DNA from: a virus
Taxonomy: Duplodnaviria; Caudoviricetes
Direction: 5' to 3' (one strand)
IMG/VR virus record: IMGVR_UViG_3300020582_000008
Location: 287-64,286 of that record
DNA length: 64,000 nucleotides
Below the pieces are notes generated by a model, which was not told the DNA's origin, did not search any database, and was given only the letters and a program-made list of their open reading frames with translations. Numbering within the stretch: position 1 is the first letter of the stretch; each line of letters opens with the position of its first letter. This document shows positions 10,698 to 23,282 of this stretch, one piece after another. The translations under genes were made by a program, and so were the position numbers.

Positions 10698-12542
10698 ATG
10701 GCCCTGACCGCAGAACGCGCCGAAGTCTATTACGAGAATGCAAGCGCGTCGTTACTTGCTCTCACTCCCGCGATCATCGACGGCAAGACTTGGCAATCGA
10801 ATCAGGATTGGGAGGACTTTCGGAATTATCTGGAACAAGTCCTCTTGGGAATGCGCAATTGGCGCACGCCGTGGTGGATGCATTGGGGCGAGATAGCCGC
10901 TCAGATGCTTCCGCGAAGATATTATTGGGTCATCACTCCCAACAACATGACCCGCGGTCTGCCGATCAATCAGAACGTGGTGGACTCGACAACCACGCAA
11001 GCAATCGGTGTTTGCGCCGCCGGCATGATGGACGGGTTATCTTCTCCTACGAAAATCTGGTTCAAGTTTGAAGCACCCGAAGGCATGGAGTTGGACACGG
11101 CGGGCAAACGCTGGCTTAATGACTTTCAAAAGGACACATACGACGTAATTTCTGGATCGAACTATTATGATCGAAAGCACCAATATTACGAGGATCAGAT
11201 AACATTTGGTACCGCGCCGATGTTGATTTACGAGAACAGAGAGCGGATCATCAATTGCGAAGTGCCGTGCGCGGGGGAGTATTTCGGGGCGTGCGGGTCG
11301 GATAATTCCATCGAGACATTCGACCGCGAATTTGTTCTAACCTGCGGGCAAATCGTGCAGCGGTTCGGACCTAAAGCCGTAGCTGGAACCAACGTCGCGG
11401 AGCTTTGGAATACCAAAGGAGCAAACCTCGAAACCGAATTCATCGTCGCACATTCCATCGAGCCGAACTTTCCGGCGAATCAGTACGGTCAGAAGCCGAG
11501 GCTTGGGGTTGTTCCGGGTGGTTATGCATATCGCGAAACCTACTGGTTGCGCGGTCTCAACACGCCGCAGCCTCTCTCGGTGCGAGGCTATCGCGAAAAG
11601 CCGTTCATGTATGCGCCTTGGACTCAGCGCTCGAACGATGCCTATGGGCGCGGGCTTGGTATGGATGCGCTGCCGGATTGCAGTCAGTTGAATCAGATGA
11701 CGCGGCGAGAAGCCGAGGCCATCGACAAGGGCGTGCGGCCTCCGATGCTTGCCGACGCGACGTTGAAGAACGAGCCGGCTTCGACGCTTCCCGGTAAAGT
11801 CACATACGTTCCGAACCTCGCACAGAACGCCGGCATGAAAGCCGCATACACGGTCGATCCGCGTTTTGTGGAATTCATCGAGCAGAAGATCGTGACGTTG
11901 CAGAAGCGAATCGAGCGATGGTTCGCCAACGATGTGTTCGAAATGATCTCGCAGATGGAGGGAGTTCAACCCCGCAACGAACTGGAATTGCAGGAGCGCC
12001 GCGGTGAGAAACTGTTGCGCCTTGGTCCGGTGATCGAGCGCAATCTTCGCGAGGATGCCGTTGGCTTGAGGCGCATCGTGTCGATCATGAATCGTCGTGG
12101 ATTGATTCCGCCCAAGCCCCAATCGCTCGCGGGCGTGCCGGTCCAACTGAAATTCGTGTCCAAGCTGGCGCTCATTCAACAGGCCGCTAAGACCGCCGGC
12201 ATGGAGCGCACTATCGTCATGGGCGGTCGCATGGAAGCCGTCCGCCCTGGCACGCTCGACGAAATCAACTTCCCGAAATACCTGCGGGATTATGGCGAAG
12301 CGGTCGAGTTTCCTCCCGAGGATTGGAACACCGACGCGGAAAAGAAGGCTTTGCAAACCGCGAGGGCACAGCAGCAACAGCAGGTCGCCCAGATGCACAC
12401 GGCTGAAAAAGTCACGCCGGCTCTTGCATCAGCGGCACAAAACCTGTCACAAACCGATACTGGCGGCGGTATGAATGCGCTGCAAATGCTGTTGGGTGGC
12501 GGCGGTACGGGTGCCCCACCCGCAGTGGAAGGCGGACAATGA
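10698..12542 (+). CDS. portal (head-tail connector) protein, BPP-1/T7-like
   Basis: AAGMMDGLSSPTKIWF, FGTAPM, YGRGLGMDALPD, LGPVIER; 614 aa. Confidence 0.92.
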   Translation: MALTAERAEVYYENASASLLALTPAIIDGKTWQSNQDWEDFRNYLEQVLLGMRNWRTPWWMHWGEIAAQMLPRRYYWVITPNNMTRGLPINQNVVDSTTTQAIGVCAAGMMDGLSSPTKIWFKFEAPEGMELDTAGKRWLNDFQKDTYDVISGSNYYDRKHQYYEDQITFGTAPMLIYENRERIINCEVPCAGEYFGACGSDNSIETFDREFVLTCGQIVQRFGPKAVAGTNVAELWNTKGANLETEFIVAHSIEPNFPANQYGQKPRLGVVPGGYAYRETYWLRGLNTPQPLSVRGYREKPFMYAPWTQRSNDAYGRGLGMDALPDCSQLNQMTRREAEAIDKGVRPPMLADATLKNEPASTLPGKVTYVPNLAQNAGMKAAYTVDPRFVEFIEQKIVTLQKRIERWFANDVFEMISQMEGVQPRNELELQERRGEKLLRLGPVIERNLREDAVGLRRIVSIMNRRGLIPPKPQSLAGVPVQLKFVSKLALIQQAAKTAGMERTIVMGGRMEAVRPGTLDEINFPKYLRDYGEAVEFPPEDWNTDAEKKALQTARAQQQQQVAQMHTAEKVTPALASAAQNLSQTDTGGGMNALQMLLGGGGTGAPPAVEGGQ

Positions 12543-14587: not shown

Positions 14588-14977
14588 GTGGCCGAACGCC
14601 AAGGCATCTACGACTCAACCGACCCTGCCGCCATCGACGCCGCAGCAAGCGCCGCCGCGCGCCGCGACCACGACGACGACGAAACAATCCGGGTATGGAT
14701 GAACCACCCCAAGGGGCGCGATCTTCTGTACCGCCATGTCTACGAAACTTGTCACCTAGGCCGGACCTTTGTTGCGGTCGATGAAAACGGCCATTCCGAC
14801 ACGCACCGGACCTATCTGGACCTCGGCGAAAGAAATATCGGTGCATGGTGGGACGAAAGGCTTCGCAGGCACGCAGAACTCTATATGCTGATGCTCAAGG
14901 AACAGGAAATCGACCGGCAAGCGCGCAACGCGCAGCTTCTAAAGCAGAACGACAAACAAGACAGCGGAAATGGCTGA
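14588..14977 (+). CDS. Bbp19-like head assembly protein
   Basis: WMNHPKGRDLL, GERNIG, ELYMLMLKE; lies between portal and scaffold. Confidence 0.7.
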   Translation: MAERQGIYDSTDPAAIDAAASAAARRDHDDDETIRVWMNHPKGRDLLYRHVYETCHLGRTFVAVDENGHSDTHRTYLDLGERNIGAWWDERLRRHAELYMLMLKEQEIDRQARNAQLLKQNDKQDSGNG

Positions 14978-15890
14978 TAAAGACGCAAAACCCGAGCCTG
15001 TTGCCGCCGTTCCTGCGGAGACGAAAGTTACCGATTCGGTCGCGCTCCCCGCGTCGCCTTTGGCAACTGCCGATTCGGCCAATCACGAAGGCGCAGCACC
15101 CGCTGCGGAAGTCAAACCTGAGACAAAGCCGAACGGCCACGATGTAACTGCCGAAGCGAAGCCGGCCGCTGAGACGAAGCCCGAGACCAAACCAGATTCA
15201 GCGTCGGAGACCAAGCCCGATGCAACAAAGCCCGCCACGGAAAGTGGCGAGACCAAGCCGCCCGCAGAAGTGAAGGCTGAGACCAAGCCCGAAGGTGAGG
15301 TCAAGCCTGAGACGAAGCCGGCGGATACCAAGGAAGCCCCGGAAGCAACGCCGCAGGCCCCTCCTGTTTACGAAGCGTTGAAACTCCCCGACACGGTGAA
15401 GTTGGACAAGGATCGCGTCGCGAAATTCGACGAGATTATCGGCAAAACCGAACTGTCCACCAAAGGCGATCACGCCGCAATGACTGCTATGCGGCAGGAT
15501 TTAGCCAATCTCTATGTCGAGGAAGTCAATCGCATCGGACAACAGGTCGCAAAGCACCAGCATGACGTGTGGAATAGACTTGTCGAGCAGCGGGTCAACG
15601 AACTCAAATCGGACCCACAGCTAGGCGGCAACCGCATCGAAACAACGCTGGGTAACGCTAAGTACGCTCTGGAAACCATGGTGGGATTGTCGAAAGACGA
15701 AGCCACCACTTTGATCGCCGTCATGGACGCAGGTGGGGTTTCTCACCATCGTTTGATGATCAAGGCGCTCAATGGAATCTACGAGCTTTTGCGCGAGCCT
15801 GAACCCGTTCCCGGAACCCTGCCTCTCAACGCAACGACCTCGAAGGAACCCGGCCAGCGTGGCTGGTACGATTCGGTCGCCAAGACGTAG
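14970..15890 (+). CDS. capsid scaffolding protein
   Basis: Low-complexity E-T-K-P repeats, LKSDPQLGG, C-terminal RGWYD; lies before the MCP. Confidence 0.8.
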   Translation: MADKDAKPEPVAAVPAETKVTDSVALPASPLATADSANHEGAAPAAEVKPETKPNGHDVTAEAKPAAETKPETKPDSASETKPDATKPATESGETKPPAEVKAETKPEGEVKPETKPADTKEAPEATPQAPPVYEALKLPDTVKLDKDRVAKFDEIIGKTELSTKGDHAAMTAMRQDLANLYVEEVNRIGQQVAKHQHDVWNRLVEQRVNELKSDPQLGGNRIETTLGNAKYALETMVGLSKDEATTLIAVMDAGGVSHHRLMIKALNGIYELLREPEPVPGTLPLNATTSKEPGQRGWYDSVAKT

Positions 15891-15920: not shown

Positions 15921-16955
15921 ATGGCTTCCTTGACCCTGGCCGATGTCGGCCGTCGCATGGACCCTGGCGGCAAAATCGCCGACATGGCCGAACTGATGTC
16001 TCAATGCAACGAGATCGACGAGGATGCCCCGCTCGTAAAAGGCAATCTCACAACCGGCCACGTTGCCACGCTCCGAACCGCTCTGCCGAAGGGCACTCTT
16101 CGACGCTTCAATCAAGGCGTCGGCTACACCAAATCCTCGGCTGCGCAGATCACGTTCGGCATGGCGATGCTGGACGCCTATTCGCAGATCGACAAAAGAC
16201 TCGCCGATCTTGGTGGAAACACCAACGCCAACCGCGAGAAAGAGGACGTGGCCCACATGGAGGGCATGTCCCAGCAGTGGACTGGCTTCCTCGTTTATGG
16301 AAATGCTTGGACCACTCCCGAACAGTTCTCCGGTTTTTCAACCTACTTCTCCGCAATCGCCAATACACCGAACGGCGTCAATGTGTTCGACGCTGGGGGA
16401 ACTGGTTCCTCAAATACCTCGATCTGGCTCATCGGCTGGGGCGACCAGACGGTTTACGAGATTTACCCGGATGGTACGAAAGCCGGGCTGATCTTCGAGA
16501 ACAAAGGTGATGTTGTCCCGGCGTTCACATCGAACGGCACGGCCCGGTACGAAGCCTATACGTCCTACTTCTCGCGTAACGGCGGTCTCGCTATCGAGGA
16601 CTGGCGCTATGTGATTCGCATGGCGAACTTCGATACCACGACCGCAGGGCTTGCTGGTCCTACTCCCCCGGACATCTTTGCGATCATGTCGAAGTCGGTT
16701 GTTCGTCTGCCGACGGCAGGGCGGATGGTTTCCGGCATCGTCAAGACCGACGCACCGGATCGCGTCGCTCCTTCGATCCGCCTGAAATTCTACTGCGACC
16801 GTACCGCGCGGGAGTACATGGACATCCAGGCGATCCGGGATAAGAACGTGCTGCTTCGGCCCGAGGATTACGCCGGCCGTCCGATTGTGAATTTCCGCAA
16901 TATCGCAATCGGTGTGGTCGATCAGATTCTCGATACCGAAAGCCGCGTGGTCTAA
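15921..16955 (+). CDS. major capsid protein (BPP-1 Bbp17 / epsilon15 gp7-like, HK97 fold)
   Basis: TLAD, RTALP...RRFNQG, EDWRYVIRMAN, FRNIAI...DQILDTESRVV. Confidence 0.92.
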   Translation: MASLTLADVGRRMDPGGKIADMAELMSQCNEIDEDAPLVKGNLTTGHVATLRTALPKGTLRRFNQGVGYTKSSAAQITFGMAMLDAYSQIDKRLADLGGNTNANREKEDVAHMEGMSQQWTGFLVYGNAWTTPEQFSGFSTYFSAIANTPNGVNVFDAGGTGSSNTSIWLIGWGDQTVYEIYPDGTKAGLIFENKGDVVPAFTSNGTARYEAYTSYFSRNGGLAIEDWRYVIRMANFDTTTAGLAGPTPPDIFAIMSKSVVRLPTAGRMVSGIVKTDAPDRVAPSIRLKFYCDRTAREYMDIQAIRDKNVLLRPEDYAGRPIVNFRNIAIGVVDQILDTESRVV

Positions 16956-18299: not shown

Positions 18300-19613
18300 A
18301 TGAAATTCCTTTCTCGCTTCCGTGTTGCGGCGCTCTGCGCTTTGGGTTGTGTGTTCCTGGCGATGGTTGGGACTATCGGGCCGGTACAGCGCGCCGTCAG
18401 TCAAGGGATGGCGCAGATCATAAATCTCGCGGGCACTGAGCAAATATCGCTCGGTTATCCTTGCACGGTCTCGTGTTTTGTCACCAGCGCAACACTGGCA
18501 AATTACTCACAGGCGACGCCCGGTGGTAATGCCGAGAATGCTTTGGTCGGTGGGGACGCCACCACAAATTTGTTCCAACGCGGTTCGTCCGTTGTGCTCG
18601 CGACCCCCGCGGCTGTTGCTTACACGGCGGATCGCTGGGTGGCATGGGGTGGCACGAATACGCCAGTGACGGTGGCGAGCGCGACCGATGCGCCCCAGAA
18701 TTACGGCAAGAGTTTCAAGGTCACGAAAGCATCCGGTGCGGGCGTTGTCCAAGTCTGTGTTGGACAGGAGATTACGACCCAGAATAGCTATCGCTTTCAA
18801 GGATTGGCGACTGAATTTGACTTTCACGCGAAAGCGCTTGCGGGGTTTTCGGCGGCTTCCAAGAATCTTGCGGTTTATGTAATCACGGGAACGGGAACCG
18901 ATGAAGGAACTGCCAACGGCGCATTCAGCATCAACGCGGGCGGCGGTTCTTCGACTCCGTGGACAGGTCCGGTCGTGGCCGGGGGCACCACGGGCTATCT
19001 GATTCCGATCACTACGACGTGGGCCAGATATGGCGTCGTCGTGCCGATTCCGGCGACCTCAACCGAAATCATGGTGGCGATCTGCTATACGCCGGTAGGA
19101 ACCGGAGGTTCTACGGACGGCTTTGAATTTACCGGAGCGCAAGTTGTTCCGAATGCGAGCCTTACGTCGGTTGCCGGGACTGCCGGCGCGATCTTGGGAG
19201 TCAACGATACGCGCGCCAAGGCTTTCTTACGCCGGGCAGCGAGCGAAGAGAGGCTGTTGCAGTTAACGTACTATTATCAGTTGAACGATCCGGCGGCGAC
19301 GGCTTCGGTCGGGACGTGCCAGGTTATTACGGCGAATTCCGCTGCCGTGTGCCTCGTGCCGTTGCCGGTTACGATGCGCGCCGCGCCGACGATCACTGCT
19401 CCCGGCTCGAATACGGCCTTTGCGATCACGGCGGCGAACGGTGCTGCGAACGTCTGTACGGCGCTTGCAGTGACAACGAGTTCGACCGTTCCACAGCCGG
19501 GCGGGATGATTTCGGTGACATGCACGCCGACATCGAACATTGCGATTACCGTTCCATCGCAATTGATCGGCGATGCGCAGGCGTTCAATATCAATGCGTC
19601 GGCGGAATTGTGA
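18300..19613 (+). CDS. beta-rich decoration/fibre-like protein with N-terminal signal peptide
   Basis: QRG...YTADRW and YYQL...PVTMRAAPTI motifs seen in phage fibres; hydrophobic leader. Confidence 0.65.
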   Translation: MKFLSRFRVAALCALGCVFLAMVGTIGPVQRAVSQGMAQIINLAGTEQISLGYPCTVSCFVTSATLANYSQATPGGNAENALVGGDATTNLFQRGSSVVLATPAAVAYTADRWVAWGGTNTPVTVASATDAPQNYGKSFKVTKASGAGVVQVCVGQEITTQNSYRFQGLATEFDFHAKALAGFSAASKNLAVYVITGTGTDEGTANGAFSINAGGGSSTPWTGPVVAGGTTGYLIPITTTWARYGVVVPIPATSTEIMVAICYTPVGTGGSTDGFEFTGAQVVPNASLTSVAGTAGAILGVNDTRAKAFLRRAASEERLLQLTYYYQLNDPAATASVGTCQVITANSAAVCLVPLPVTMRAAPTITAPGSNTAFAITAANGAANVCTALAVTTSSTVPQPGGMISVTCTPTSNIAITVPSQLIGDAQAFNINASAEL

Positions 19614-19645
19614 GCGTTAAGCGAAAGCATTGGAGCGATAGCGCC

Positions 19646-20536
19646 ATGCGCAGGATTTTGTTTGCTGGGCTCGGGCTCTTGCTTAGCGTTTTGCCTGTTG
19701 TTGCGCAAAACACTACGGGGCTTGTCGTAACGACCTGCGGCACTGTCCCCACGGCATTTAAAGCCACAAATCCAGGGCCATTCACCGTTGATGTAAATGG
19801 TAACCTGTGTACGGGCGCAACGTTCACACCAAGCGGCACGCAGAACGTCAATCTCACACAAATTCTTGGCGCCGCACCGAGCCTGACAAATCCCCTATGG
19901 GTCTTTCCCGCGACCGGTGCGACGTTTCCGGTAAGCGGGACATTTTGGCCTTACACGCTGGGCCAGCAACTTGCGGCTGCTTCTGTGCCTGTGGTGCTGA
20001 CCGCGGCGCAGCTTTCCACCTTGACACCGCCGCCTGCGATCACCGGCTTTGCACTTGATACCTCAGTCGCCACGACCAACACTGATCTGGGACCTCCCGG
20101 CGCGACGGCGTGCGCGACCGATACCGGATCGTGCTCGCTCAACGCGCTGCTGCAACGCATTGCGCAGCGGATTTCCACCGCGCTCGGTGGCACTACCGTC
20201 AGCGGGACCGTGACCGCCAACGGTGCGGCGAATGTTACCGCGACGGATTGCTCCGGTACAATTACGTCGGGCGGTGGCGCTCAAAATGCCTTCACGGCGC
20301 AGACGACGTTGCATGGCTTTACCATCGCCAACATCGATACGACTGAGCCGCTGTGGATTTCATTCACGACAACGGCTGCGGCGTCCGGCGCGGGCAGCTA
20401 TCCGCTGCCCGCCGCGACCGCGACGACCTTTGCCGGATTTGGCTCGTTCACGGCGCCACCGGGCTTCGGCCTCAATCACGCGCTGTCAGTGATCGCGGCG
20501 ACGACCAGCCATAAGTTTACGTGCACGTGGTGGTAG
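19646..20536 (+). CDS. Ala/Thr/Gly-rich fibre-like protein with signal peptide
   Basis: MRRILFAGLGLLLSVLPVVA-Q leader; VDVNGNL motif. Confidence 0.65.
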   Translation: MRRILFAGLGLLLSVLPVVAQNTTGLVVTTCGTVPTAFKATNPGPFTVDVNGNLCTGATFTPSGTQNVNLTQILGAAPSLTNPLWVFPATGATFPVSGTFWPYTLGQQLAAASVPVVLTAAQLSTLTPPPAITGFALDTSVATTNTDLGPPGATACATDTGSCSLNALLQRIAQRISTALGGTTVSGTVTANGAANVTATDCSGTITSGGGAQNAFTAQTTLHGFTIANIDTTEPLWISFTTTAAASGAGSYPLPAATATTFAGFGSFTAPPGFGLNHALSVIAATTSHKFTCTWW

Positions 20537-20538
20537 CC

Positions 20539-21054
20539 ATGGGCCGCTTCAAAAGAACGCTCGCCGCACTTCTGCTGTCATCGTCGCTTGTTTCGCCGAG
20601 TCAAGCGCAGTTCGGCAGCGGTGGTACGATCTCGCCATGCAACGGCGATCTCAATACGTCGTGTCAGGTCACGAATCTTCATACCGGCGTCAATCGAATT
20701 CTCTGCTCGATCCGCGCCGCGAATTTCAACATCACGACAGATCAATCATGTGCGATCCCGGCCTCAGTTACGGCCTGGGTGCCGACCTCGATCATTGTGA
20801 CGAATTGTTCCGGCACGTTCACTCTAGCGGCTGGCGGCGTCTATCCCGCGACGAGCAAAGCCGGAACGGCGCTGGTCGCTGCGGCGCAGGCTTATACGGC
20901 GCTAACCGGCGCGACTGTCGTTTTAGGACTGACGCTCGCGGCCAACATCGCGACGACGCGACAAACCGTTAACTCGGTTTACCTCTCGCTTACGACCGGA
21001 ACGGGCAGTGCGGCGACGTGCGATTTCTATGTCGTCGGGAACGATCTCACATGA
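20539..21054 (+). CDS. beta-rich structural protein with signal peptide
   Basis: MGRFKRTLAALLLSSSLVSPSQA-Q leader. Confidence 0.65.
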   Translation: MGRFKRTLAALLLSSSLVSPSQAQFGSGGTISPCNGDLNTSCQVTNLHTGVNRILCSIRAANFNITTDQSCAIPASVTAWVPTSIIVTNCSGTFTLAAGGVYPATSKAGTALVAAAQAYTALTGATVVLGLTLAANIATTRQTVNSVYLSLTTGTGSAATCDFYVVGNDLT

Positions 21055-21983
21055 TGTGGCGTGTCGCTCTTGCGGTTTGGCTGACGGCGGCACTCTCGCT
21101 GTTCGCGTTCAACGCGCCGCGGGCGCAGTTCAACGGCTGTCAGGCTGGATTTTGTAGTCCGCCATCCTCTGCGGCAGCCGCATATGTTGGCCCCGGCGAC
21201 ATCACGTCAGGCGCCATCGCATTCTATTCCTGTAGTCGAGCTTACAACGCAGCCTATGCAAGCGGCCTTAATGCCGCTTGCGACGTAGTCGATACCGCTA
21301 CAGGTCTTGTCACGGGAACGATGCACTTTCTCTCTACCGGCTTTGTAAACGTCAACGAACTGACCGGCGTTGGGCAAGCCTGCCACGCCGCGTGCAGCGT
21401 CACGAAGATGTACGACCAGACCGGCACCGGCAATCATGTGGTACAGGCGACGCTCGCCAATATGCCGGCGCTGACGTTCAATGCACAGAATGGATTGCCG
21501 TGCGCGGCGGGTGGAGCGAATAGTCCGCGCTTAGTCACAGCCGGAAATATAACGCAAGCCGCACCATTTACGATGACAGCAGTAACCGAGCGCGGTAGCG
21601 GATTTACGACTCTTCAAAATATACAAAACAATGGAAATCTTAACATCCTTCGGTTTCCGGCGGTGGCAAATCAGGTAAGCGCTGTGTCTGGGACAGCCAG
21701 TACATTAACTGCAACTGATAGTGCTTTTCATGCGTTGCTGGCGGTGGTTAGCGCGACAGCCCCTTTATTTGCTGCCGATAGCAGCGCAAACACAAGCACA
21801 GCAACGTTTGGAACCTCTGCAATGGCCTCTACCGAAGCTATTGTCGGAAGGTCTGGCGGTCAGGGGCCAATACTTGCTGGTGGTTTCGTCTGCGAAGCCG
21901 GTATCTGGCCCGCCGATCTCAACTCATCCTATCAAGCCATGCTCGCCAATATGCGCAGCGCGACCAATGGGTGGAATTTCTAG
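21051..21983 (+). CDS. LamG/arabinofuranosidase-B-like head-fibre or receptor-binding protein with signal peptide
   Basis: AIAFYS..RAY and VTKMYDQTGTGNH motifs; hydrophobic leader ending PRA-Q. Confidence 0.6.
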   Translation: MMWRVALAVWLTAALSLFAFNAPRAQFNGCQAGFCSPPSSAAAAYVGPGDITSGAIAFYSCSRAYNAAYASGLNAACDVVDTATGLVTGTMHFLSTGFVNVNELTGVGQACHAACSVTKMYDQTGTGNHVVQATLANMPALTFNAQNGLPCAAGGANSPRLVTAGNITQAAPFTMTAVTERGSGFTTLQNIQNNGNLNILRFPAVANQVSAVSGTASTLTATDSAFHALLAVVSATAPLFAADSSANTSTATFGTSAMASTEAIVGRSGGQGPILAGGFVCEAGIWPADLNSSYQAMLANMRSATNGWNF

Positions 21984-21985
21984 CA

Positions 21986-22174
21986 ATGCCATGGAAATCC
22001 GGCAAAGCCTTCGCCTCGAAGCACAACAAGAAACTGAAAGGTGAAGCCGCAACCACGGCGAAGAATCAAGCCGAGGCGATGATTAAAAAAGGGATTCCCG
22101 AGGGAGAAGCCATCGCGACAGCGAATAAAACGGGGAATCGAATTGAAGCCCGACAAAAACGCTGGTATGGATAA
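21986..22174 (+). CDS. small basic protein (MPW... family) ending RWYG
   Basis: MPW start, GIPEGEAIATA; TAATG coupling. Confidence 0.65.
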   Translation: MPWKSGKAFASKHNKKLKGEAATTAKNQAEAMIKKGIPEGEAIATANKTGNRIEARQKRWYG

Positions 22175-22440
22175 TGGCCTCGTTAACGCTCGCCGACATG
22201 GCAAGACGGATGGTGCCGGGAGCTAAGGCCGTGGCGAAGAAACACTGGATCAAGGGCGCGATCAAACATCCCGGCAGAGAGACGCGCCGCGCCAAGGAAC
22301 ATGGCGTCTCTACCCACGAGCAGATGGAAAGCGACAGCCACAGCAAGAACAAGTCGCTCGCCGCCGCCGGCCGCCTCGGGCTGGCGTTATCGGCGAAAAG
22401 CAAGAAACCCCGCGGCGAACGCTGGTATGGAAAGGACTGA
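22174..22440 (+). CDS. small basic protein with a capsid-like N-terminus and RWYG tail
   Basis: 14 of the first 18 residues match the MCP; WIKGAIKHPG motif. Confidence 0.7.
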   Translation: MASLTLADMARRMVPGAKAVAKKHWIKGAIKHPGRETRRAKEHGVSTHEQMESDSHSKNKSLAAAGRLGLALSAKSKKPRGERWYGKD

Positions 22441-22442
22441 AA

Positions 22443-22730
22443 ATGGCCGAACGCAAATGGTACGGCAAAGAGGGCGGCGGCGGGGAAGGGACTCACGAAC
22501 GCCATTCCCGCGAGCGCAAGGAAATGCACACGCGGCATTCCAAGATGCGCGATGCGCTCCACAAGCAGCACGAGGACGAGATTGGCCAGATGGCCGAACG
22601 GCAGTCTCAGGAGGCGGCGACCGAGAATCAAGGAGCGCAGGCGCCGGCTGCCGCAGCGGCTCCCGCAGCAGCGGCGCCAGCGGGTCAGGGAGCCGCTGCG
22701 GCAGCAACCGGCGCAGGGGCGCCAGCATGA
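22443..22730 (+). CDS. small His/Ala-rich protein with N-terminal KWYG
   Basis: AAGGA RBS. Confidence 0.65.
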   Translation: MAERKWYGKEGGGGEGTHERHSRERKEMHTRHSKMRDALHKQHEDEIGQMAERQSQEAATENQGAQAPAAAAAPAAAAPAGQGAAAAATGAGAPA

Positions 22731-22886: not shown

Positions 22887-23282
22887 ATGGCAAGGTTTTC
22901 GGCGATGATCGACATGGCGAAGGACATCAGCGAAGTCAAAAAGGAAACGGCGCAGATGACCGCGCCGATGCCTGCGGATGCCAAGCCATCGGTCCCGGTC
23001 TATCCCTATGGCCTCTGTATCAGCCTCGAAGATGAGCAGCTTGAAAAGCTCGGCCTCGACGGCGAACTTCCTTCGGTCGGCGACATGCTCCACATCGCGG
23101 GCATGGCCAAGGTCACATCGGCTTCCGAGAACGAGCGCGAAATGAGCGACGGCAGCAAACAGAAATGCCGCCGGATCGAATTGCAATTCACACATCTGGC
23201 AACCGAAAATGAGGACGAAGAAGGCGAACAGGAAGCGCGCCGCTCCCGCTTCTATGGATCGACCGACACCAAGGCCGCGTGA
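22887..23282 (+). CDS. capsid staple protein (epsilon15 gp10-like)
   Basis: YPYGLCISL..EQLEKLGL...LPSVGD...ELQFT motif. Confidence 0.8.
   Translation: MARFSAMIDMAKDISEVKKETAQMTAPMPADAKPSVPVYPYGLCISLEDEQLEKLGLDGELPSVGDMLHIAGMAKVTSASENEREMSDGSKQKCRRIELQFTHLATENEDEEGEQEARRSRFYGSTDTKAA

Follow-up and report, generated by a model that had tools for sequence, protein, structure and literature searches.

[quoted passage not shown] The other end of SP resembles the C-terminal tail of the cement (decoration) protein, and we tentatively propose, at a probability of roughly 45%, that SP is a putative two-ended docking protein at the interface between MCP and cement protein. The window, i.e., the whole 64,000-base stretch of DNA that we analysed, comes from a virus record of 64,286 bases that is rated complete by CheckV. 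It is an epsilon15/BPP-1-like podophage, 64 kb in length and complete.

Table 1. Positions in the window of SP, its parts and the structural and neighbouring genes discussed in the text.
Feature	Positions	Strand	Basis or remark
T7-type portal	10698-12542		PF12236
306-aa protein directly upstream of MCP	14970..15890	+	phrog_458, E 1.1e-17; PHROG label 'protease'
Major capsid protein (MCP)	15921..16955	+	PF20911 'GP7'; arm copied by SP at 15921-15974
Gene A, 62-aa basic protein (pI 10.3), ends ..ARQKRWYG	21986..22174	+	stop overlaps SP start
Small basic protein SP, 88 aa plus stop, pI 10.7	22174..22440	+	ORF, translation
SP N-module, residues 1-18, copy of the MCP N-terminal arm	22174..22227	+	conserved core L4-M13
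Shine-Dalgarno-like GGGAG..AAGG, then in-frame GTG (codon 20)	22218..22233	+	
SP helical body domain, residues 21-75, exchangeable between phages	22234..22398	+	
SP C-terminal tail RGERWYGKD	22411..22437	+	motif also in gene A and cement tail
Gene C, 95 aa, N-terminus MAERKWYGKE	22443..22730	+	
Cement (decoration) protein, epsilon15 gp10 homolog	22887..23282	+	C-terminal tail RRSRFYGSTDTKAA at 23238-23279

Both structural partners belong to known families. In a profile search, MCP matches PF20911 (GP7) with an E value of 1.9e-91 over residues 14 to 344, and among solved structures it matches those of BPP-1 (3J4U, E 2.2e-59) and epsilon15 gp7 (3J40, E 9e-54). The cement protein is a member of PF21628 (Gp10-like; E 4.6e-11, 43.3 bits against a cutoff of 27) and matches epsilon15 gp10 (3J40) with E values of 1.7e-8 as a single sequence and 5.6e-20 as a profile; it has no match by sequence to the BPP-1 cement protein. 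Three small genes, A, SP and C, lie in this order just 5' of the cement gene, with SP in the middle. The 306-aa protein encoded directly upstream of MCP is a candidate scaffold; Pfam and NCBIfam searches with it gave no match, and no protease family was confirmed. The gap between MCP and cement genes is 5.9 kb in the window versus 1.7 to 3 kb in many relatives. Between MCP and the small genes, positions 18300-21983 hold 4 consecutive ORFs, starting at approximately 18300, approximately 19700 (inside the ORF 19316-20536), 20521 and 21018. By eye, each has a hydrophobic, signal-peptide-like N-terminus ending in AQ or similar, and none has a match in Pfam or NCBIfam. A 437-aa ORF of this group is also present on L095, the contig of locus L005.

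SP begins with MASLTLADMARRMVPGAK and MCP with MASLTLADVGRRMDPGGK (translated from 22174-22440 and 15921-16955, respectively), and 14 of these 18 residues are identical, counted from residue 1 in both proteins. In a comparison of the MCP 16-mer S3-K18 with all six frames of the window (BLOSUM62), SP scores 58 and the next best place 29, with a self score of 82. The codons differ at 10 of the 12 identical residues within S3-K18 and nucleotide identity is 29/48, so the likeness appears to be kept at the protein level. This codon comparison excludes a recent duplication or gene conversion as the origin of the tag. The MCP DNA string that the original prediction had quoted occurs once in the window, at 15921. 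Translation of both genes confirms the N-terminal identity that had been reported there, and the claim of heavy recoding at the DNA level proved correct as well. The view that the likeness is old and selected rather than the product of a recent duplication gains support from the recoding, from purifying selection in the SP frame and from the presence of the tag in diverged phages. Mimicry of the MCP arm, the original reading, is likewise supported by the comparisons below, in which the arm is conserved throughout the family and the tag is portable across protein bodies and tracks the cognate arm.

The start codon of SP overlaps the stop codon of gene A (TAATG), and stop/start overlaps (TGATG, ATGA or TAATG) were also read from the upstream sequences of L001, L002, L005, L036 and L131. 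Comparison of the window with L005, whose MCP is 86% identical, gives 6 identical, 10 synonymous and 3 non-synonymous codons among the first 19, and the other two frames of the same stretch keep 7/18 and 6/18 residues. Judged by these substitutions, the tag is under purifying selection in its own frame, and translation of SP from residue 1 (22174) is supported.

Homologs of SP are more widespread than the tag. Of 47 homologs found in metagenomes at E ≤ 0.01, 15 have the tag and 32 lack it, and among 17 IMG/VR loci found via the SP body the tag is present in 1 and absent in 16. For 45 distinct phages the interval from MCP to cement gene is covered; here the tag pattern matched in 8, with genuine tags in 7 (the window, L001/L060, L002/L064, L005, L028, L036 and L131). 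The match in L110 is a 13-residue non-gene and was rejected as a tag. A search with the L131 MCP brought up the L161 clade, in which the tag is present at 14 of 69 loci, and our own count for clade loci with at least 7 kb of downstream sequence is 10/29. Pattern scans returned 17 stretches from metagenomes (8 tagged small genes and 9 unrelated chance matches) and 18 from IMG/VR DNA, the latter including 3 tagged genes, none of them on new contigs. A tblastn search of 50,697 cultured phage records gave no SP homolog. On these counts, the tag is optional and not a trait of the whole family. The original prediction had named a downstream translation start and homologs without the segment as findings that would speak against it: the first is at odds with the supported start at residue 1, while the second is what was found, most homologs lacking the tag. 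Docking into the capsid lattice or titration of an MCP-binding factor, the functions suggested there, may follow from such mimicry. An internal ATG or GTG start, the tail that SP has in common with the cement protein and the cement protein as known partner of the arm in this capsid type had not been part of that prediction.

Where present, the tag always begins at, or no more than 5 residues from, Met1 and thus occupies the extreme N-terminus (residues 1 to 14 or 18). It is portable: by eye, it heads about six types of SP body, and the bodies of L081/L221 and L198 differ strongly in sequence. Three types are characterised by KHPGRE..EHGVSTHEQ (the window), ..GLHRALGVPEG.. and ..AKAKAAG.ST.., a fourth by ..SDFALPGKG..PIPDE.HA.., and a fifth begins with PDDKEIKLTG. 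The sixth comprises proteins of 53 to 55 aa, among them P0050 and P0051, that consist only of the tag, a K/P-rich linker and the C-terminal tail. The clearest case of exchange is L001 (6778-7047), in which MCP is 100% identical to that of the window and SP has the same tag and the same tail but not the same body between them, suggesting recombination inside the small gene at the module borders. The same tag arrangement occurs in phages whose MCPs are 55% to 86% identical to that of the window. The gene neighbourhood recurs too. Homologs of gene A are found in L028, L030, L016/17, L029, L083 and L089, in the last two upstream of a tagged gene, and homologs of gene C lie between SP and cement genes in many loci. 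On the short metagenome contigs L081, L084 and L086, gene C and the cement gene follow downstream. In the L161 clade, the cement gene lies 0.5 to 1.3 kb downstream in 12 of the 14 tagged loci, and the other two loci end too early.

The tag also co-varies with the arm of the cognate MCP. For 15 phages with both a tagged protein and an MCP start, 10-residue cores were aligned on the invariant Asp, and cognate pairs of SP and MCP gave a summed score of 432 that was reached by none of 200,000 permutations. For the 11 phages of the L161 clade taken by themselves, 51 of 200,000 permutations reached the observed sum; a previous test of smaller size, with 54 distinct MCP arms for comparison, had 9 of 100,000 random draws reach its own observed sum. 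The phages are related, so these permutation counts overstate independence and are not true probabilities; the test within the clade controls for relatedness only in part. Mean core identity is 6.33/10 for cognate and 5.17/10 for non-cognate pairs. The cognate MCP ranked first for 5 of the 15 phages (L036, L161, L213, L223, with 9/10 identical residues, and L224); counting against co-variation, it ranked 12th of 15 for L162, 14th for L207 and 5th for L028.

What the tag copies is a well-conserved part of the capsid protein. The motif L-T-L-A-D-x-[G/A]-R-R-x-D-P-x-G is found in the MCPs of all relatives fetched, and the MCP N-termini of BPP-1 and epsilon15 align with it. In BPP-1, according to the available part of the structural paper (PMC3863775), the MCP N-terminal peptide is radial, exposed to the outside and hydrogen-bonded to strand C of the cement protein. 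The C-terminal loop of the cement protein contacts MCP strands and both terminal loops of MCP, and its N-terminal loop touches the MCP N-terminal loop. For PhiXacm4-11, the accessible portion of a preprint (10.64898/2026.02.16.706137) describes an N-arm contacting the base of the cement jelly roll and an 18-residue C-terminal extension on the cement protein; at the portal vertex, five cement pairs, which would clash with the portal-adaptor, are absent. As far as these partial sources go, the MCP model starts at residue 5 in BPP-1 and at residue 2 in PhiXacm4-11. The arm, uncleaved and external in these capsids, is therefore not a cleaved propeptide, and the idea of a propeptide or cleavage signal was dropped; in this capsid type its known partner is the cement protein. 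These structural facts come from BPP-1 and PhiXacm4-11, and the window MCP is at most approximately 40% identical to the nearest MCPs of cultured phages. The N-terminus of the window cement protein (22887-22925, ..AMIDMAK..; family consensus M-V-D-M-A-x-T-P) is itself loosely like the arm of MCP and SP (..LADMAR..).

At its other end, SP carries a motif that is shared with its neighbours. SP and gene A end with, and gene C begins with, an RWYG- or KWYG-type motif (Table 1), and the cement protein ends with ..EARRSRFYGSTDTKAA. A motif scan of the window found no further real ORF with an RWYG-type motif, a fourth match (20619) being in a seemingly non-coding frame. In many relatives, too, an acidic linker of the cement protein leads into a tail of this kind, which is optional. 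The motif of the small-protein C-termini is also found on cement tails and the two vary together, as in the window (RFYG and RWYG) and in L198 (..RVLYDK and ..KRVLHDNP). By eye, the small proteins and the cement tail of one phage tend to have the same residue in front of Tyr, namely W or F in the window clade, L in the group of L033, L110 and L125, and R in L030; the tail pair of L198 reads ..KRVLHD.. and ..MRVLYD... Exceptions to this agreement are L028, L037 and L100. From these alignments, the RWYG tail of SP resembles the cement protein's own C-terminal tail. A link of the tag to tail-less cement proteins, seen by eye, is confounded by relatedness and was dropped. In gene C, the motif is N-terminal and not C-terminal; a run of Gly, a stretch rich in His and Arg and a tail rich in Ala and Pro come after it. 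Gene A (22158-22171) and SP (22407-22420) have at their ends an identical string of 14 bases coding for ..RWYG.., for which chance use of the same codons, a small tract of gene conversion or an element for coupling could account.

The body of SP gives few clues to function. Searches of Pfam, NCBIfam and PHROGs with SP, gene A and gene C gave nothing above threshold, and sequence searches of the PDB with all three gave no match; SP has a weak match to phrog_20603 (unknown function; E 4.4e-4, residues 24 to 50 only). An AF2 model of SP is helical with a mean pLDDT of 66, the body helices having values of 67 to 87 and the tag being a short helix of low confidence. Foldseek gave no match in the PDB at E ≤ 0.001, and among viral models the SP body matched uncharacterised small proteins only, including a 65-aa protein of an uncultured phage (E 7.4e-4, 44% identity) and a 59-aa protein of the Thermus phage P74-26 (E 0.12, 38% identity). 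The Fusellovirus VP2 family also shows some likeness, weak and below threshold (Pfam E 0.0067 for the homolog P0009; atlas feature score 0.81). Complex prediction for the cement protein and SP residues 1 to 40, run without controls, gave ipSAE values of 0.00 and 0.01, which speak neither for binding nor against it.

The border between tag and body holds a second potential start. All 14 tag-bearing loci with DNA have a start codon at this junction (ATG in 11, GTG in 3), usually preceded by a GGAG-like motif, and a further 11 tagged proteins from the L161-clade comparison all have M there. Untagged homologs start exactly at the junction position, and the only tagged proteins without an internal start are P0050 and P0051. 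Junction starts together with untagged homologs that begin there make it likely that tagged and untagged isoforms exist. In the window, the GTG at 22231 (codon 20) is probably a second start that would give an untagged isoform of 69 aa, its use being inferred from these comparisons. The retained internal start might also simply mark the site of body exchange, and residues P15 and G16 of the match may be conserved partly for encoding the internal ribosome-binding site.

How might the tag, the tail and the two starts fit together? SP carries copies of both peptides that meet at the MCP-cement interface, so docking there is the simplest reading. We propose that the tag lets SP engage the site used by the MCP arm, its most likely partner being the gp10-like cement protein, whose gene is the second one downstream. 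The tail, [R/K]-x-[W/F/L/R]-Y-[G/D], would copy the cement C-terminal extension, which grips MCP subunits in BPP-1. The tagged form would start at 22174 by re-initiation at the gene A stop and the untagged form at the internal GTG. The sequences show the copy itself, its selection, portability and co-variation with MCP and the overlap of stop and start; the binding partner, the location in the capsid and the use of both starts are what we infer in this scheme. Docked in this way, SP might be a minor accessory protein, a staple or, transiently, a decoy. Homologs of both partners seen in the capsids of BPP-1, PhiXacm4-11 and epsilon15 are encoded in the window; in those capsids, the counterpart of the tag is the MCP N-arm that contacts the cement jelly roll. 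As far as the available parts of those reports go, the arm sits on MCP itself, and they describe no separate small protein with a copy of it. We found no paper on such a protein in a literature search that had most subscription journals outside its reach. Some points count against docking: in the icosahedral lattice every cement subunit already has its MCP arm, so that it is hard to see where the tag would find a vacant site; a pI of 10.7 would also suit a DNA-binding internal protein; and the tag is optional, being present in 7/45 phages and 14/69 loci of the L161 clade.

The basic character of SP brings up a different role, in which the tag is a signal for incorporation into the procapsid: a contact between arm and scaffold would bring small basic proteins into the head interior, there to bind DNA or to be ejected. 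We consider this less likely than docking, but the high pI of SP makes it a serious rival. SP and gene A are both strongly basic (Table 1), the likeness to the VP2 family, weak and below threshold as it is, points the same way, and a candidate scaffold gene lies just 5' of MCP. The coat protein N-arm of P22 contacts the scaffold. A further parallel is provided by phage T4, whose internal proteins (IPII and IPIII) have a capsid-targeting sequence (CTS) that, according to the available part of PMC9958956, is like the SP tag a short (approximately 10 aa) N-terminal peptide that is portable between cargos and head-directing. However, the CTS acts via the scaffolding core, followed by protease processing, and is not reported as a copy of an MCP terminus, whereas the SP tag is a copy of the MCP arm and the two vary together, and the known partner of that arm is the external cement protein. 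In the two solved relatives, as far as their sources are available, the arm of the mature head is external and cement-bound, and the SP tail resembles an external cement tail. In addition, this family is without a known procapsid structure or scaffold contact, and no protease family was confirmed for the window in Pfam or NCBIfam.

Less probable still is that SP regulates assembly without being part of the virion. As such a decoy, its tag would cap the arm-binding edge of the cement protein and its tail would fill the cement-tail pocket on free MCP, blocking premature MCP-cement complexes until the expanded shell displaces SP. The resemblance of SP to both peptides that meet at the interface fits this well, as do the optional distribution of the tag, the small size of SP and the position of its gene among the head genes, just before the cement gene. 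Co-variation, however, is equally expected for a stable docking protein, and sequence alone cannot separate the two.

A special location for a docked SP is the portal vertex, where SP, with its likenesses of the two peptides (MCP arm and cement tail) by which MCP and cement protein are normally joined, would stand in for missing contacts and fill vacant pockets around the portal. The idea derives from the cement pairs and penton MCPs being absent there, as the available part of the PhiXacm4-11 preprint has it for the cement pairs. Few copies would be needed, in keeping with a tagged isoform made by re-initiation only and probably at a low level. In the Thermus phage P74-26, the portal vertex protein gp34 is a small extra capsid protein whose N-arm joins the MCP sheet and which stabilises the vertex without a penton (PMC12407722, available in part); this is an analogy for a possible SP site only. 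Unlike SP, gp34 comes from an unrelated phage type and has a T7 gp2-like, strand-containing fold, and the available part of that paper does not present it as copying an MCP arm. We regard the portal vertex as an improbable site.

More doubtful again is that only the short form of SP matters, translation starting effectively from the internal GTG or ATG and the upstream stretch being tolerated read-in. The junction of tagged loci does have ATG or GTG with a Shine-Dalgarno-like motif where untagged homologs start, most homologs have no tag, and the upstream sequence of the long-form ATG in the window shows no clear ribosome-binding site of its own. Nevertheless, purifying selection upstream of the junction is frame-specific, the tag co-varies with the MCP arm, the overlap with the gene A stop is conserved, and P0050 and P0051 have no internal start. 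Finally, the match is short at 18 residues, but that it is due to chance or is a relic at the DNA level (a recent partial duplication, gene conversion or a shared RNA element) is scarcely credible given its score of 58 versus 29 for the next best place in 64 kb, the recoding of 10 of 12 identical residues and the same arrangement in phages with MCPs only 55% to 86% identical to that of the window, and it is contradicted by selection and co-variation.

Docking of SP via a copied capsid peptide would have a counterpart in encapsulins, in which short, terminal cargo-loading peptides dock varied cargos onto an HK97-fold shell. Those peptides mostly sit at the C-terminus and attach to the inside of the shell, and they are not known to copy a terminus of the shell protein itself. 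If the docking reading is true, this capsid family would have a natural, portable address label derived from the capsid protein's own arm, one whose evolution keeps pace with that of the capsid and which a range of small proteins can carry. Minor capsid-associated proteins of uncultured phages could then be found by a simple rule based on sequence, and there would be a ready-made peptide for attaching cargo to capsids of the BPP-1/epsilon15 type, for which phage display is an interest in the available part of PMC3863775. The finding makes testable how the small, unannotated basic proteins of head gene clusters reach the particle.
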